Positions 5,001 through 63,315 of a DNA stretch of 64,000 nucleotides are shown piece by piece. Where the stretch lies: the IMG/VR virus record IMGVR_UViG_3300033121_000332, positions 1,191 to 65,190 of that record. The stretch is one strand, 5' to 3'. This DNA comes from a virus. Lineage: Duplodnaviria; Caudoviricetes. The notes below the pieces were generated by a model that saw only the letters and a program-made list of their open reading frames with translations, had not been told where the DNA came from and did no database searches. Both the position numbers and the translations under genes were made by a program. The stretch's first letter is position 1; every line of letters starts with the position of its first letter.

Positions 5001-8000
5001 GCTTATACGCAGCATGTTTCTTGCCTAATATACCCTCTTTATCACGTAAAAGAGGCTGACCAGTACCCGACTCTCTAAAAGATTTTGCTTGTAAATCATC
5101 GTAGAGCCGAGTATCTTGCTCAATCTTCAATTTCCCTTCGTTATTCTTAACAGCTTTAAGTATCTGTTCATCGCTAAATGATTCTCTAAGTTTCCGCATC
5201 CCTTCACTTGAAAGAATGCGTGTTTGGGGATCAACTAATTCACGAAGGCTTGTTTCTACATCCCGATCATATACTGGCGGCTTATCAAGTGCCGCAATTT
5301 CATCCGTTAAATCTTGGATACGCTTTTCATAAAAGCTACGAGTGGGACTACCTTCTGGTTGATTAGTGGCTGCCAGTCTCTCCTGTTGATCGCGTAGATT
5401 GTCTTGTAAGTATTGTCGCAACTCAGGATCACTTCGATATTCGGTTCTTTTTGACTTATAATCAGCCAACATAGAATTTACTTCAGAAGTTATTCCCGCA
5501 TCACTAGCCTGCTTTTGTATAGATTCAATTTGCTTAGGCGTTAAATCAGCCGAGGCTTCTTTTAATACTTTAAAATCATCGGAACGGCGCAGATTAGATT
5601 CCGCAATAGCACGGGTGTCGGATTGACTTTGCTTCACCCCTGATTCTACGGCGGCCTCACCAAATTTCATGGCGTAAGCCTTTCGCAAAACTTTAGACGA
5701 TTCTTCAACTGAATATGACTGCCCCTTACGCTCAGATGTCCCGCCTTTTTTATAAAGTGAATGTCCCGGTACCTCATAACGAAATTCCGTAGACTTCGCT
5801 TCATCCAGCAAAGACTGTCTTTCAGCAGGGCGCAACCCTAAATCTTTCAACTGACTATCCAAATTGCTCCGCGACATACTCTGCTTTGGCAGATTTAACG
5901 GCGTCACTCTTTCCGGTTTAGCGACAGATGCAGTCTTAGTTTCCGAAGGCGCGACTTCCACCACAGGTTTCTCAGCCATCGGTTTCTCAGCCACTACTGC
6001 TTTCTTTGCCGCTCGTTTCCCCTTAGCTTCTGCCGCTTTCTCTGTCACCGTAGGCGCAACCTTCTTTGCCCCGCGAACAGGTGCTTCCATTACGGGAGCC
6101 GGTGGTTTGCCCAAAATAGACTCAATCGCCTCTTTCTGCGTGGAGAAGGTTTCTGTCCCTTCGCCACTCGGACGCTTGATTTGCCACACGCTATGATCGG
6201 GGTCATATTCCAGCGACCGACCATCCTGCGCCTTATAAAGCTGGCTGTCTACCTTTTCAAATCCAGCCTCTCTTAGCGTGGCTTCATTGTATTTCGGCTT
6301 GCCTGGTAGTGGTGGGGGTGATGCCTTTTTCGTGGTAGTGGTCGGCGCAGTTTTCGCCACAGGTTCAACCGGAGCCGCCTCAGCCATAGTTTCCGGTGCA
6401 GACTTGACTGCCGGAGTAACTTGGTCTCGCGTCTTGCGTTTTGAACGATCTTTGGGTTCCAAGGATACTGAAGATGGCTTGCTTATGTTAGTTATACCTA
6501 ACGTCTCATAGACATATCGTAGTAAGTCTTGCTCGCTTTTACTTTTAGCAAAAGCGGCGTTGTACTCAACAGGCATCCCACCACCTTCGCTGTAATCTAC
6601 GATAGTCACACTGCCATCGTCCCACCGTTGCAGGTGAACGGGGATATCGCCTCGATCTTCCGTTTGTATTGTGTAGCTGGATCTTGATGCTGGCCGTGGT
6701 GCGACTGGAGCCATGTCTTTGGGATTTGCTTTTGCCGTCACGGATTCAGGCTCAGTTGTCCGAGGGAGAGTCACCGCCTTTGCTTTGCGTGTTTTAGGCG
6801 CAAGGGTAGACGCTATCGGGGATTCCGGCGCAACCGGGGCCACCGGAGCAACATTCTCTGGTACAAGTTTCGATGGTTCTACAAACCTATCGTTCGCAGA
6901 AGGTTTCGGCTTGCGAGTTCGCGGAACTTTTGTGCCAGCAGGAGCAGGCTTTGTTGCCGCTTCGCCCATTGCAGGAACTTCTGGTACAACTTCCGGTGCT
7001 GGTCGCATCGGGGTTTCAGGTTGTTCTGGTTGGACGGTACGAGCCGCAGGGGTTTCCTCAACATCTGTAGTTCCTCTCTTAAATGGTATCGGTTCACCTT
7101 CAGACGGACGGGTTGCTTGACGTGTCGCCATCGGGGTTTGTGGTGTTTCATTTGGTGGAAGCGCATCTCCACCCGTCTTTCCACGCGCCAGTTCAATCGA
7201 CTTATTCATTCGGGCAATTAGACCCGGAGAAAATCCTTTACTTCGCGCCCATCCTAGCCAGACATTAGGCGGGACTTGCGCCAAGGAGACATCAGGCGGC
7301 AATCCCATTCTCTTAGCTACATCTTCTCTTACCGCATCCCGTACTGCTTCCTGATTCGCTTCTGGTGGTAAATCCAGAGCCGCTTTGACTTCGGGATCGC
7401 CAATAACAGCGTTCGCCCCTTTCTGCCAAATCTCACCAGATTCAGTCGGGGGAATATCTACCGCATTTGAATGTAATCTGGTAACATCCCCAGGTGTCTT
7501 CTGGTACGGTGAACGACCAAGAGCATACGCGACATCCCCATATTGACCGAATTTAGGATTCTTTGCCGTCCCTCTCTTCGGCCCCCGAAAATCCCCTTCC
7601 TTCAATGTCCCTTCAGCCACACGTTGAGCCTGCTCACCAATAACACGCTCCCCTTCTGCCTTCATGTTCCGTGCAACAGCTGGTCGTTCAGCAAACATCA
7701 GCGTATCATCTAGCGTGGTCGGTGTAGCATTTTCGGCTGATCTATTATCTGCAATTATTCGGGATGGCCCCACCGGACGCTGTATTGTGTCACCGGGGCG
7801 GCGTGGCACGATTCCCCCACGGGTTCCTTCAGTAGCCTGCGGAATTCTCGCTTCTCCCGGTCGGGGTGGCATCGGCTTTGTCGCGGGTTGTGCCGGCGCG
7901 GTTGGCGGGACTTCCGGTGGAACGGTTGGTGGGATTGGAGACTCTGCCTGTGTAGCCGGAGGCGGAGTCTCAGGTAATGGTACTAATCCTTCCCCAACGT

Positions 8001-54367: not shown

Positions 54368-56128
54368 CTAAAATTGCGGGATACCAGACTCATCTTCGTC
54401 ATCCGGCCCATCCGTTTTCCATTGGGATTCGTAGTACTGACCTGAAACAGAATCGTAGAACAACTCGCAAACCCCTTCTTGCCCGATGTAATGCGGCTTG
54501 ACCTTCTGAACGTGGATATCAACCTTGTTCGACCGTTCGGACTTGCGACGATACAGGGAGATGATGTTGTGCGCCAAGTTATACCAGTGCGCCGAACCGG
54601 GAAGGGCATACGGTGTAATTACCGGCCCGTCAATGTCCCCAGGCGTGTAAGTCATCTTCGGATGAACGACCAGCCAACCATGCAAGTTTTCGTGTTGAAG
54701 AAAATGCTGGAGTTTGTTGATAGTGACGCGGATATAGTCAGTCTCGTTCATCGAGTCAGGGCGCACATGATCAAACTTCGCCCATGGGTCAATCGTCAAT
54801 CCTTGAATCCCATACTCTTCTCTGGCACGTTTCGCCATTGCCATCACAAAAGGAATGGTCAGCGGCTCCCCGTTTTTCGCCTCGATGAAGTAAAGCGAAG
54901 ACTTCAGTATCCTTTTCGCTTCTTCGTACATCTCGTCACCGATCCGAGGCGTCGGCCCGTGGTAAAACGGTGATCCGGTGTACGCCTCCATAAACCGGGA
55001 ATAAAAGTATGCGGGAGGGGCAAATTCCGGGGAAGCAACGGCAAACTTCCACCCATGCTGGATCATCATATTGGCCATCAATGCGTTCATAAAATGAGAC
55101 TTCCCCGCCGTGGGACTGCCAGTGACCATTGTCAAATATCCGGGAAGTATTGTGTACAAGTCTCTCAGGTTGTTCCATCCGGGGGATATCCCTTGCGGCA
55201 ACCCATTCCTCCGGTATTCGTCAAGCTGAGGCTCGTACTCATCCAGCGTGTACAATCCCGGCGTCTCATCGGGAACCCCTGTGTCGTAGCCGACACCCTC
55301 AACTCTCAAAACATCGTCTTCGGGATCTTTCGCGCCAACATAGCTGGCGATATTCACCAGTTCCGCATCGTCTTTCGGTGGATTGCATCGGTTGGCGTTT
55401 TCCATTCTCAGGCAAGCTAGAATCCCCTGAGTACTAATCCCCTTGCGCCTCATTGCCCCTGCAAACGCCAACAAAACCTTATGCCGGTCGCCTGGGATTA
55501 ACTGCTCCCCATCGTGAACAAGTACCCCTGGTGTGGCCGGCGCGGGGGTGGCCATCATATCGATCAACCACTTCGGCATCTCTGGCAGGTGTCCATTAAC
55601 CGGGACACCCCACGTATACGTGTTCCCTGAGTAGTGGGTACTCCCAGGGGCCACGATGTATCCACCATCCCCTCTGAAATCCAAGCCTATCCCTAGCTTG
55701 CTTGGCTTAGTAACGCTCCCCTGCGTGTTGGCAATATGGAATCCCGGATGCTGGAAAAGAATGTGATACCCACCACTCCCTGTCTTTGCGTAAACCTTTT
55801 CAGGGAACTCTCCATGTTTTCGTACCAGATCCCGAATGGTGTCATTTCCCCCGTGATAAGAATCCACATCAAGCACCACAAATCCTGACTTGCTGCCAGT
55901 GGCCACTCCGATATTCGCCTCCGGCCACATCCCCCACCACTTACGGATCTGCGCCAAGTCTGTTGTCGCATCCTGCAACCCGTTTATCGTTCGGGGATGC
56001 TTCCCGTTGCTTTTGCAATCCTTGTGGTGGCAAGAGCAGATGTGGTTGGCGTCAGGGGTGTGAAGCGGCATTACCGCCCATCCCTTTTCGGCGTACTCTT
56101 GAGCAATCTCTAATTTAGTCTTAGTCAT
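54368..56128 (-). CDS. Bifunctional primase-polymerase (PrimPol) + PriCT + SF4 (T7 gp4/Twinkle-like) helicase
   Basis: GWAVMPL...NGKHP...WWGMWPEANIGVATG...VLDVD; Walker A GSPTAGKS; IDPW and HGWLVVHP; GGAGGC RBS before ATG 56128. Confidence 0.85.
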   Translation of the reverse strand: MTKTKLEIAQEYAEKGWAVMPLHTPDANHICSCHHKDCKSNGKHPRTINGLQDATTDLAQIRKWWGMWPEANIGVATGSKSGFVVLDVDSYHGGNDTIRDLVRKHGEFPEKVYAKTGSGGYHILFQHPGFHIANTQGSVTKPSKLGIGLDFRGDGGYIVAPGSTHYSGNTYTWGVPVNGHLPEMPKWLIDMMATPAPATPGVLVHDGEQLIPGDRHKVLLAFAGAMRRKGISTQGILACLRMENANRCNPPKDDAELVNIASYVGAKDPEDDVLRVEGVGYDTGVPDETPGLYTLDEYEPQLDEYRRNGLPQGISPGWNNLRDLYTILPGYLTMVTGSPTAGKSHFMNALMANMMIQHGWKFAVASPEFAPPAYFYSRFMEAYTGSPFYHGPTPRIGDEMYEEAKRILKSSLYFIEAKNGEPLTIPFVMAMAKRAREEYGIQGLTIDPWAKFDHVRPDSMNETDYIRVTINKLQHFLQHENLHGWLVVHPKMTYTPGDIDGPVITPYALPGSAHWYNLAHNIISLYRRKSERSNKVDIHVQKVKPHYIGQEGVCELFYDSVSGQYYESQWKTDGPDDEDESGIPQF

Positions 56129-56415
56129 TTCAGCCTCCACGTCTCGTAGCCTTTCGCCTTGCCTTCGCTTTTGAACTGCTCCCACGCTGCAAAGAATTGA
56201 CCTATCGTGAACTTGTCGTGTGGGGCGTGATACCTGGCAGCGTTCAAGGCCACGGCTTTCCAATACTTCGCCGGCACTTCGCCCACCAGTGCCTCATACC
56301 ACGCTCTCGCTAGGCTGTCCATCTCTTGCTCGTCGAGCGTCCTCAAACACGTCAGCAAACGTGCGCGGCTTAATAAACTGGTCAGGCCGCTCAGAAGGGT
56401 TTCCTTTCCAAACAT
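56125..56415 (-). CDS. Putative helicase-loader-like small protein overlapping the initiator 3' end
   Basis: GAGGCAATG start at 56415 (alternative 56514); position between initiator and helicase. Confidence 0.45.
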   Translation of the reverse strand: MFGKETLLSGLTSLLSRARLLTCLRTLDEQEMDSLARAWYEALVGEVPAKYWKAVALNAARYHAPHDKFTIGQFFAAWEQFKSEGKAKGYETWRLK

Positions 56416-60615: not shown

Positions 60616-60644
60616 TTGACAAGCGATAAGTACGTGGCTATACT
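60616..60644 (+). promoter_or_regulatory. Rightward sigma70 promoter
   Basis: TTGACA-17-TATACT. Confidence 0.8.
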
Positions 60645-60894: not shown

Positions 60895-61491
60895 ATGCAA
60901 TGGGCATCAAATTCCACATGGGTAGAACCCGAAATTGGAAACAATATCGCCATCTGCATCAGAGTCATTGACTTGGGGACACAAAAAAACGAATACCAAG
61001 GCAAAACGACTTGGAAGCGTCAATCAATGGTCATATGGGAACTGCCGGAACAGAAGGATGGCGAAGAAAAGCCTATCACGATCAGCAAGTTTTACACCGC
61101 CACCCTGAGCGAGAAGTCCAACCTGAGACACGATTTGGAGAACTGGCGGGGGCGTCCGTTCACGCCGGAAGAACTGGGGGGATTTGAGGTTAAGAATATC
61201 ATTGGAAAACCCTGCCTGCTTAACCTTGTTCGTAACGACAAAGGCAAAGTCAAAATCGGTGCAGTATCCTCCATCCTGAAAGGGATGCCGATTCCCAAAC
61301 CCACTCATGAGACTTACATCTACGACTTGGACGCACCCGATCCTAAAGTGTGGGAAATGCTCTCGGACGGCATTAAGGCAATCATCGAGCGTTCGCGTGA
61401 GCGCACAGGCGAATCGGAGTCATCGCAACAGGGTAATATCGCTGGAGACATTGCCGGTATCGCGCCTGATGACGATGGTATTCCCTTTTAA
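60895..61491 (+). CDS. Phage single-stranded DNA-binding-like protein
   Basis: IDLGTQ...SEKSNLRHDLENWRG...IIGKPC family pattern; acidic tail ending DDDGIPF. Confidence 0.7.
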   Translation: MQWASNSTWVEPEIGNNIAICIRVIDLGTQKNEYQGKTTWKRQSMVIWELPEQKDGEEKPITISKFYTATLSEKSNLRHDLENWRGRPFTPEELGGFEVKNIIGKPCLLNLVRNDKGKVKIGAVSSILKGMPIPKPTHETYIYDLDAPDPKVWEMLSDGIKAIIERSRERTGESESSQQGNIAGDIAGIAPDDDGIPF

Positions 61492-61698
61492 TCAAGAAAC
61501 GGTCAACCCGGAAGATGAATTATTGTTTTCATCTTCCGGGTTCTAATACAAGGAGGCAGTTTGAAAATACAAGAAAGCTGGTTGACTAAGGGGACGGTCG
61601 TAATCGCCTGCATCCCCGTGAGTCTTATCGTTGTCAGTTTTATCTTGAAACTGGTCGAATCTTTGGTGGCAAAATAACGGAACTGGAGGAATCAAGAA

Positions 61699-62451
61699 AT
61701 GCCTGGTTTGAAGAATTGGGAAAAATGGGTCGTAATTTTTGTGATGATTGCTGGCTTGTCCTCGATCATTGTCTACTTCAACGTCCGAGTCTTCGGGTGG
61801 TATGACGGCGCACCTTATATCGCTGTCGTGGGCCTCATTGTCCTGATGAGTTTCATTATCACTCGACATATCAGATATAACCCCGTCACTACAAACTTCT
61901 TGCGAGCCGCGTTTATCTTTGAGATACTGCTGTGCATCTCACTTGGCGTCAACGTCGCCTATTCCCTTTCGGTTATGAGAGAGATGAGCGTTGCCGGCCA
62001 AAGTGAAATCCACCAAGAAGAGATAGCAAAAACTCAGTCTCAGACAATGGCCGAAATTGCTAAATTGAAATCCCCCCAGGCTCAAAGAACAGCAACCCGG
62101 ACAATGGCGGCAACACAAGGGAAGGGAACCGCTCCCGTCCTGTCCAAGTTGGACGTTTTTAAGCAGTATGACCGATGGTTGTTCTGGATAATGATCGGGG
62201 AACTCGCGGTGGCCGGCATCAGCTTCTTTGTCTTGCTATCGCTCTCCGTGTTTGATGCAGATGGAAATGGGGTTCCTGACTTTATGCAAAAGGCTCCTAT
62301 CCCTCGGCACGTAGGAATGGCCCCTCAGATGTCGGAAGGGATGATCGCGGCGCGGCATCGAGCAATGGGGAGACGCCCCATGCCAGGGACACTCTCCCAC
62401 TCCCACGATATCGATGACGACGACGAAGAGGAGGATGACTCCCCAAAATAG
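61699..62451 (+). CDS. Four-TM membrane protein with acidic tail
   Basis: Four hydrophobic segments; ends DDDDEEEDDSPK at a CCCAAAA heptamer. Confidence 0.75.
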   Translation: MPGLKNWEKWVVIFVMIAGLSSIIVYFNVRVFGWYDGAPYIAVVGLIVLMSFIITRHIRYNPVTTNFLRAAFIFEILLCISLGVNVAYSLSVMREMSVAGQSEIHQEEIAKTQSQTMAEIAKLKSPQAQRTATRTMAATQGKGTAPVLSKLDVFKQYDRWLFWIMIGELAVAGISFFVLLSLSVFDADGNGVPDFMQKAPIPRHVGMAPQMSEGMIAARHRAMGRRPMPGTLSHSHDIDDDDEEEDDSPK

Positions 62452-62490
62452 AGGAGCCACTGGCAGAAATACCAGTACGCGCTGACCCTG

Positions 62491-62773
62491 AAATCACCCC
62501 TAACCTTGATGTCGGTGGACTAAGGTTAGGGGTGATTTTGGCGCAAATACCCGAACCTCAGTTGGTGGCTCAAGATTGGCCCGAACCTTCAAATGCCCGA
62601 ACCTTTTGTCAAATGCCCGAACCTTGTGTTAAGTCTATTACTCACAACGATTATCAAATGCCCGAACCTGCTGAAACAGGGTTAGGGGAAGTAGTTGACG
62701 ACGCAAGGTTAGGGGTGACATTTGACGAAGGGTTAGGGGTGACAATAGACTCAGATTTCTTAGACCCGAACCT
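62491..62773. repeat. Array of 11 CCC(G/T)AACC(T/C) motifs on both strands, including a perfect 17-bp inverted repeat
   Basis: IR arms 62491-507 and 62522-538; CCCGAACCT at 62550, 62580, 62596, 62616, 62661, 62765; reverse copies at 62523, 62679, 62706, 62730. Confidence 0.85.
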
Positions 62774-63137
62774 TCAATTATGGAACCTTGAAACCTATGG
62801 AGACAGACATGGAAAACGACGAATTAGACGAACCCTCAGATTCATCTCAGATCCTAAGCTCCGAGAGGAACTTGGGCAAATCACGCCCGAAGCCGAAACC
62901 GAACTCAAAAGTCGGATTGGCAAAGGCAGGTGGCAACTCAGCCGAACCCAAGCTGAATCTCTCCGACATATTGCTAACGCAATTGCAGAGTCTATGCGCG
63001 GATCTGCTAAAAGCCGGAATAAACGTAAGCCTGCACGAAAAGGAAAACCAACTGGCAATCCTGCTCCCTCTCGTCAAGACGTGCCAGGTTCACAAGATGA
63101 TCCACAGTGGGCAAATCTGCCCGATGTGCTTATGTAA
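62532..63137 (+). CDS. Repeat-containing ORF, possibly expressed as a -1 frameshift extension of 61699..62451
   Basis: Frame is open from 62439; no clear RBS at GTG 62532. Confidence 0.4.
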   Translation: MILAQIPEPQLVAQDWPEPSNARTFCQMPEPCVKSITHNDYQMPEPAETGLGEVVDDARLGVTFDEGLGVTIDSDFLDPNLQLWNLETYGDRHGKRRIRRTLRFISDPKLREELGQITPEAETELKSRIGKGRWQLSRTQAESLRHIANAIAESMRGSAKSRNKRKPARKGKPTGNPAPSRQDVPGSQDDPQWANLPDVLM

Positions 63138-63159: not shown

Positions 63160-63290
63160 CAACTGGTCAAATCCTAACTATCGCTATCGGTGGTTCAATC
63201 CTGTGGGTAGCCATTCAGTTTCTCGGATGGCAAATCGACAACCTGTACGCCCCAAAAGAAAAACGTGATCAGACGAAAGAAAAATCTTGA
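63156..63290 (+). CDS. 44-aa single-TM protein
   Basis: GGAGG RBS; MTTGQILTIAIGGSILWVAIQFLGWQ. Confidence 0.65.
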   Translation: MTTGQILTIAIGGSILWVAIQFLGWQIDNLYAPKEKRDQTKEKS

Positions 63291-63315
63291 CAGTTGGCAA
63301 GTCGGGGTGTATATT
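63287..63315 (+). promoter_or_regulatory. Sigma70 promoter
   Basis: TTGACA-17-TATATT. Confidence 0.75.

Follow-up and report, generated by a model that had tools for sequence, protein, structure and literature searches.

The plus strand near the end of this viral DNA raises the question whether two adjoining reading frames represent two genes or a single gene whose halves are joined during translation. The window, i.e. the complete stretch of 64,000 nucleotides analyzed here, covers the final 64 kb of a linear IMG/VR virus record that is 65,190 bp long and has an estimated completeness of about 71%. The site in question is located in a plus-strand transcription unit, 1.5 kb from the end of the record. 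The upstream frame (U, 61699–62451) encodes a 250-aa protein and ends with the codons TCC CCA AAA TAG. An open -1 frame spans 62439–63137, and its part from the shift site onward (D, 62448–63137), which was delimited by translation and by comparison with homologs, consists of 229 codons followed by TAA. On the basis of sequence comparison we assign a probability of about 0.8 to a programmed -1 ribosomal frameshift at 62442–62448, whose products in this window would be U (250 aa) and, in smaller amounts, a U-D fusion of 479 aa. Across the family, we consider frameshifting still more probable.

The proposed mechanism treats U and the -1 frame as one recoded gene. Most ribosomes would terminate at the TAG codon at 62449 and release a 250-aa protein with four transmembrane (TM) segments. 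A fraction would slip back by one base on C_CCA_AAA, with tRNA-Pro re-pairing with CCC in place of CCA and tRNA-Lys moving between two AAA codons. Having slipped, they would read on to complete the 479-aa fusion, which consists of the membrane anchor, an acidic tail, a Pro/Glu-rich linker and a basic domain roughly 120 aa in length. At the predicted junction DDSPK is joined to IEEPLAE.

The motif, its register and the open -1 frame were read directly from the sequence. The heptamer C_CCA_AAA (62442–62448, plus strand) stands in the X_XXY_YYZ register with U, as the first-pass annotation had noted, and the zero-frame TAG (62449–62451) follows immediately 3' of it in a so-called shifty stop context. 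The sequence C_CC.A_AA.A was reported to be shift-prone in E. coli without stimulators, and motifs of the type X_XXA_AAA were far less efficient than X_XXA_AAG in the same organism (PMC4066793). We infer that slippage does occur in this phage. Its efficiency may be low because of this weaker motif type, a weak downstream stem which is not conserved, and a Shine-Dalgarno (SD)-like run that lies close to the heptamer. Two other routes from U into D were considered and rejected. Transcriptional slippage in this window would have to act on an A run of only 4 residues. Read-through of the TAG leads the zero frame to a TAA at 62518–62520, and the D frame is never entered.

U is preceded by a GGAGG SD sequence at 61685–61689, 9 nt before the ATG. 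Hydropathy and loop charges revealed four hydrophobic segments, in agreement with the earlier description as a four-TM protein, with positive charge at the N-terminus and in the second loop. Three N-terminal TM helices are separated from the fourth by a charged loop about 80 aa long; a DxDxDG-type motif (DADGNGVPD) and an acidic tail follow. The TM segments are located 32–80 residues upstream of the shift site. According to the positive-inside rule, U is predicted to have both its N- and C-terminus inside the cell. The extension had been described as a basic cytoplasmic tail. The D core plus tail has a calculated pI of 10.9; a cytoplasmic location would follow from the N-in, four-TM topology that the positive-inside rule predicts. 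The DADGNGVPD motif (U residues 187–195, 62257–62283) resembles calcium-binding motifs of the thrombospondin type 3 and EF-hand-like kind, and a DxDxDG-type motif follows TM4 in most U homologs, e.g., WEWDRNHDGIADH and DKDDDGDPD. Such motifs are usually extracytoplasmic, which is at odds with the charge-based N-in/C-in prediction. The U protein shares 77% identity with its near relative L016 and 11–21% with the U proteins of other loci; the architecture is still common to all. No family was assigned to U in Pfam, PHROG, NCBIfam or PADLOC, and a peptide-pattern search of IMG/VR with the U protein returned no relative. BLASTN against the phage collection gave no match.

D starts with an acidic Pro/Glu-rich linker (pI 4.1), which is followed by the basic core and tail. 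Eleven close homologs were found, and a profile search extended the set to 79 representative clusters (50% identity), 42 of them at an E-value of 1e-10 or better. The D homologs (P0001–P0086) share an invariant block, LWNLETYGDRHGKRR..LRF, and a basic C-terminal region, at whose end PDVLM is frequent. Judged by these alignments, D is a real and conserved protein family. For the conserved core (62766–63023, plus strand) AlphaFold2 predicted a short helix, three beta strands, a helix and a long helix. The model was built from 53 sequences and is moderately confident, with a mean pLDDT of 73 and values of 76–92 over model residues 11–90. Fold searches with the core gave a best Foldseek E-value of 0.63 against the PDB, Z-scores of at most 4.3 in a wide VIA-align comparison, driven by the long helix only, and solely unnamed clusters with scores of 0.77–0.80 in the ESM Atlas. 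None of these was convincing as a match, and the core was given no fold assignment. At the sequence level, the best E-value of the D profile against PDB sequences was 0.53, no meaningful family was found in Pfam, PHROGs, NCBIfam and PADLOC, and the search of GTDB genomes returned no relative.

All full-length close D homologs end with PDVLM, which is the C-terminal motif of D itself (63120–63134, plus strand, by alignment of homologs), or with the closely similar PSLLM, PDMLM or PNVLM. This end could serve as a docking peptide for a partner protein. In the homologs it is preceded by Q/R-W.

For the comparison of loci, the DNA around D homologs was taken from public assemblies, IMG/VR and JGI metagenomes. 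Fifteen loci with DNA were obtained, including the window (W), and two further contigs were covered from gene tables only. The occurrence of U before D was thus scored in W, L001/L016, L002, L009–L013, L019, L022–L027 and the two gene-table contigs. The arrangement is maintained across diverged lineages: D follows a multi-TM ORF in 17 of 17 cases and always lies in its -1 frame. Like U, this ORF encodes three TMs and, beyond an extended charged loop, one more, often together with a DxDxDG-type motif. From inside the end of U to the core, over 59–177 codons, none of the 15 loci with DNA has a break in the D frame; in seven of them the frame opens just 1–8 codons ahead of the slippery motif. Such a motif was present in register within the short overlap in every one of the 15 loci (12 heptamers and 3 tetramers next to the stop). 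These counts support the first-pass annotation, which had postulated a -1 programmed frameshift giving a 250-aa and a roughly 480-aa form.

The X_XXY_YYZ heptamers occur in register within the last 10 codons of U in 12 of the 15 loci and comprise five sequences. CCCAAAA is found in W, L016, L002, L011 and L024, CCCAAAC in L010, L019 and L022, GGGAAAC in L013 and L027, GGGAAAA in L025 and AAAAAAC in L023. The tetramers are C_CCU with UAG (L009 and L012) and U_UUU with UAA (L026). The stop codon directly abuts the heptamer in W, L016, L025 and L027 and is one codon off in L010, L011, L022 and L023. Both C_CC.U and U_UU.U belong to the six tetramers found to be shift-prone in E. coli, and A_AA.A_AA.C and G_GG.A_AA.C are low-efficiency motifs which are still used by IS elements (PMC4066793).

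The background frequency of in-register heptamers was 0.0019 per codon in the long ORFs of the genome and 0.0025 per codon in the rest of the U genes, and the chance of a heptamer within the last 10 codons is about 2.5% per locus. Finding 12 of 15 corresponds to a binomial P of about 3e-17 if the loci are treated as independent. The loci are related by descent, and a conservative count of 6 of 8 lineages gives 7e-9. Selection for a Pro-Lys dipeptide cannot explain the motif, since its sequence varies while the slippery pattern is kept and the flanking tails are not conserved. The Pro-Lys at the C-terminus of U could nevertheless be in part a protein-level constraint.

The same set of loci bears on a suspicion which the first-pass annotation had raised against its own proposal, namely that an indel from sequencing or assembly split what is really one continuous ORF. 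A short homopolymer run such as CCCC AAAA is a place where this can happen in general. The junction sequence was identical in at least eight independent assemblies of near-identical phages from different samples (L003–L008, L014), and the same -1 break occurred in 15 diverged loci with different motifs. Moreover, none of the 79 representative clusters of D, obtained in a search over 1.84 billion representatives, was an in-frame TM-D fusion; their long members had no TM segment. A 'longer' search with U likewise gave no in-frame fused homolog, which is weak evidence. An indel can practically be dismissed as the origin of the frame break.

Next to the heptamers, stimulatory elements were sought on both sides; the pattern expected for a bacterial or phage -1 frameshift is an RNA structure about 5–9 nt behind the motif or an SD-like element about 10–14 nt ahead of it. 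The SD-like sequence GAGGAGG in front of the heptamer, which had been taken for a possible stimulator, is indeed present at 62429–62435 (plus strand). It is separated from the heptamer by 6 nt and remains a candidate with a weak case for such a role. An SD sequence 10–14 nt upstream reportedly stimulates -1 shifting in dnaX (Larsen et al. 1994), and the run in the window lies closer than this optimum. It is a by-product of a run of Asp/Glu codons, and its counterpart in L016 is GAGGA at equal spacing. The stem ACTGG-N8-CCAGT (62459–62463 with 62472–62476, plus strand), which had been placed about 10 nt downstream, does start 10 nt after the heptamer and can pair weakly. The fold of the surrounding 55 nt (62449–62503) reached -9.9 kcal/mol with a z-score of -0.6 and was no better than that of shuffled sequences. 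The near structure is weak in both W and L016, and the stem-loop of W is not conserved in L016. In 11–12 of the 15 loci RNA folding predicted a hairpin of -14 to -37 kcal/mol (z -1.7 to -5.4) starting 2–6 nt past the motif. This spacing is the canonical geometry, and the clade of the window (W and L016) is the exception. For this clade we infer that the stop codon abutting the heptamer, and not a hairpin, is the main helper.

A much stronger structure is located further downstream. A perfect inverted repeat (62491–62538, plus strand; 17-bp arms, 14-nt loop) starts 42 nt after the heptamer, and the segment 62449–62540 folds with -42.4 kcal/mol (z -6.0). In L016 the equivalent repeat has 12 bp and starts at +41, both arms being altered in concert. 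The stem is too distant for a classical stimulator, but it sequesters the codon GTG 62532. As a strong intrinsic terminator between U and D the palindrome had to be rejected: the terminator scan made no call, the loop has 14 nt and only 4 T residues follow. Attenuation at this palindrome is conceivable.

GTG 62532 is a candidate start in a rather unlikely alternative, in which U and D are two ordinary genes. Translation of D would then begin at this GTG or elsewhere within the frame, perhaps through re-initiation past the TAG, and the heptamer would merely encode a Pro-Lys end or be due to chance. Gene callers split D from U everywhere, in line with this alternative; none of the starts they chose for D has a good SD sequence. 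The GTG is the first ATG, GTG or TTG codon in the D frame of the window. The first-pass annotation had found no clear ribosome binding site in front of it, and only AAGG was detected upstream; in addition, it lies within the 3' arm of the 17-bp repeat. In three further lineages the still open D frame contains no ATG, GTG or TTG after the motif for 70 codons (L013), 66 codons (L019) and 47 codons (L023). By sequence and comparison, D lacks a usable independent start: GTG 62532 has no SD sequence and is base-paired, and these three loci have no start over 47–70 codons. The -1 relation in 17 of 17 pairs and the hairpins at canonical spacing also speak against two separate genes. The same holds for GGGAAAC (Gly-Asn) and AAAAAAC (Lys-Asn), which cannot be explained by selection for Pro-Lys.

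Three further observations agree better with separate genes than with the frameshift. Apart from the weak near hairpin in the clade of the window, these are the stop before the heptamer in L001 and the existence of stand-alone D genes. In L001 (NCBI assembly GCA_054403375.1) an in-frame TAG is present five codons before the heptamer, at a position where the near-identical sibling L016 has GAG (L001:720-737 versus L016:880-904). Therefore, zero-frame ribosomes could not reach the shift site there. The TAG could be a defective or natural nonsense variant or a sequencing error, or D could be expressed in another way in this element. D-type genes without U were found in L018 and L021, so the D core works untethered in some elements. 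That the searches turned up no natural in-frame TM-D fusion also counts against the frameshift.

The linker coding region of D carries a second kind of information. Eleven copies of the motif GGTTMGGG/CCCKAACC, in both orientations and in all three phases, are located at 62494–62775, and only two of the 13 copies in the 65-kb genome fall outside this segment. The arms of the 17-bp repeat are two inverted copies of this motif. Its CCGAACC core clusters at the equivalent place in every related locus (L002, L009–L013, L016, L019, L022–L027). CCGAACC is mostly translated as [P/T/A]-E-P and the reverse copies as R-F/L-G; in L022 the array reaches into the U frame, where it is read as P-N-P. Synonymous positions are clearly biased. 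The Glu codon within [PTA]EP is GAA in 85 of 87 cases compared to 208 of 321 elsewhere (P 6e-12), and the codon before this Glu ends in C in 76 of 87 cases. Because of this bias at synonymous sites, the sequence data indicate a constraint on the array as nucleic acid. Frequently a reverse copy precedes a forward one by about 23–26 nt, an arrangement that could form RNA hairpins or DNA palindromes.

Such a constraint would also be expected if the segment between the U stop and the D core were an untranslated regulatory region (an origin, an operator or a centromere-like array), with D reduced to a short protein initiated near the core and the open frame incidental. Two loci fit this picture: in L021 the N-terminus is short and an ATG precedes the core by 15 codons, and in L013 a TTG precedes it by 23 codons. 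Even so, we regard an untranslated region as very unlikely. All 15 loci have an unbroken -1 frame of 59–177 codons whose upstream end falls precisely within the last part of U, which is not to be expected of untranslated DNA, as about 5% of random codons are stops. The indels between the end of U and the D core of W and L016 sum to 12 nt and preserve the frame, and the linker residues between the motif copies align across lineages. Under the frameshift reading the linker would be translated as part of the fusion and at the same time carry the array.

A candidate role for the array was that of an origin for the adjacent initiator of the NGO0469 family. This was not supported: the family was not found beside U-D in the tested neighboring ORFs of L012, L013 and L026 or in two other viral records, all of them incomplete records, in a comparison whose control genomes gave no signal. 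From these loci, the array seems to travel with D and not with an NGO0469-type initiator. The cumulative GC-skew has its minimum near 60–62 kb. The minimum is uninformative on an origin because it coincides with the switch in gene orientation.

The transcription unit of U-D is flanked by two near-consensus sigma-70-type promoters, each with 11 of 12 matches in the promoter scan. TTGACA-17-TATACT at 60616–60644 (plus strand) marks the start of the unit, and the unit runs up to TTGACA-17-TATATT at 63287–63315 (plus strand). Between U and D the only promoter-like site is a 9/12 match inside the motif array. U and D appear to be co-transcribed, since strong promoter-like sites are restricted to these two positions. 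About 200 nt upstream of U the same unit contains a 198-aa gene (60895–61491, plus strand) which matches NCBIfam NF046043, 'phage replication initiation protein, NGO0469 family' (E 2e-56, 190 bits, cut-off 75). This protein gave no match in Pfam, and the matching PHROG 862 is without assigned function. Across the divergent region follow genes for an HTH protein, an RuvC-like resolvase and a Prim-Pol/helicase. The promoter unit, the NF046043 gene and these neighbors therefore place U-D in the early/replication part of the phage genome.

Some details of this neighborhood may be added. The last residues of the 198-aa protein, DDDGIPF, are similar to the acidic tip at the C-terminus of bacterial SSB. 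Between the initiator-family gene and U, just past the former, lies a perfect inverted repeat (61505–61542; 15-bp arms, 8-nt loop), which lacks a T run and is therefore no classical terminator. The 630-aa gene at 54368–56263 (minus strand) contains a Prim-Pol domain (E 1e-45) with PriCT-1 and a weak AAA_25 match and probably encodes a phage primase/helicase.

With regard to function only a doubtful guess can be offered, namely that the fusion may be a membrane-tethered nucleic-acid-binding module which works with the CCGAACC-type array in its own linker coding region. If this were true, the array would supply the binding sites, and the fusion would hold the phage genome, or alternatively its own mRNA, at the cell membrane to serve replication, segregation or control. 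The rate at which ribosomes slip would then determine the ratio of the anchor alone to the anchor with tail. This rate might be tuned by the membrane insertion of TM4, 32–80 residues upstream of the shift site. The array of nucleic-acid motifs inside the recoded region offers a concrete handle on function.

Among known systems, the transposases of IS1 and the IS3 family (InsAB', OrfAB) show the same organization of two overlapping ORFs, the second one in the -1 frame without a start of its own (PMC4066793). Their heptamers are of the same kinds as those of the U-D family (A_AAA_AAC, G_GGA_AAC, A_AAA_AAA/G), and a hairpin or pseudoknot follows at a distance of a few nt; full function resides in the fusion, and by default only the upstream product is made (PMC4066793). 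There is no relation in sequence or domains to U-D, the upstream part of the IS proteins is a DNA-binding domain instead of a four-TM protein, and the product is a transposase, whereas U-D is a pair from the early/replication part of a phage.

The tail assembly chaperones G/GT of phages (G_GGA_AAG in lambda) resemble U-D in being conserved among phages, in shifting near the 3' end of the upstream gene and in yielding a minor product with a C-terminal extension. The G/GT arrangement is conserved despite sequence divergence, and some members work with little or no downstream structure. However, G/GT belongs to the tail module and consists of other proteins, whereas U-D has a membrane anchor and an extension that matches the upstream protein in length. 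E. coli dnaX (tau/gamma) also combines -1 slippage on an X_XXA_AAN heptamer with an SD-like element upstream and a hairpin downstream. There the shift truncates the product, the SD sequence lies 10 nt upstream and the hairpin is strong, whereas in U-D the shift would extend the product, the SD-like run lies at 6 nt and the near hairpin is weak in the clade of the window.

In the alphavirus 6K/TF system, a -1 shift in a small membrane-protein gene likewise generates a variant C-terminal tail. Co-translational membrane insertion is said to be able to pull on the nascent chain there, and by analogy the TM distance of 32–80 residues in U would be in that range. Unlike U-D, 6K/TF comes from a eukaryotic RNA virus, shifts on U_UUU_UUA and has a short trans-frame tail, and the sequences are unrelated. 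The iterons of the lambda ori within gene O are comparable to the U-D array as short repeats constrained as nucleic acid inside the linker-coding part of a replication-region gene. Motif, protein and repeat layout are unrelated, and an origin role for the U-D array would be an analogy only.

As far as the searched literature shows, the U-D gene family and its module are undescribed, although the mechanism itself is classical. In a survey of joined phage genes 2397 of 2476 were tail assembly chaperones, and no membrane-protein class was mentioned (PMC10885494). U-D looks like a conserved -1 frameshift outside the tail module, in which a membrane anchor is joined to a basic domain in many soil and environmental phage lineages. 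The output of gene callers, two 'hypothetical proteins' with an implausible D start in several lineages, would thus miss the real product. With five heptamers, two tetramers, hairpins present or not, and stops adjacent or codons away, the family represents natural variation on what bacterial slippage needs.

Finally, the surroundings of the pair differ between lineages. Tyrosine recombinase genes adjoin it in two of them (L002:3625-4542; L012:210-1403 and 5027-5926). A general link of U-D with integrases was rejected: they stand beside the pair in L002 and L012, and none is present in the 65-kb record, which is about 71% complete. In L002 genes for MerR and HU are located upstream of U-D, and on another contig an Acb2/Tad1-hairpin gene occupies the upstream position.
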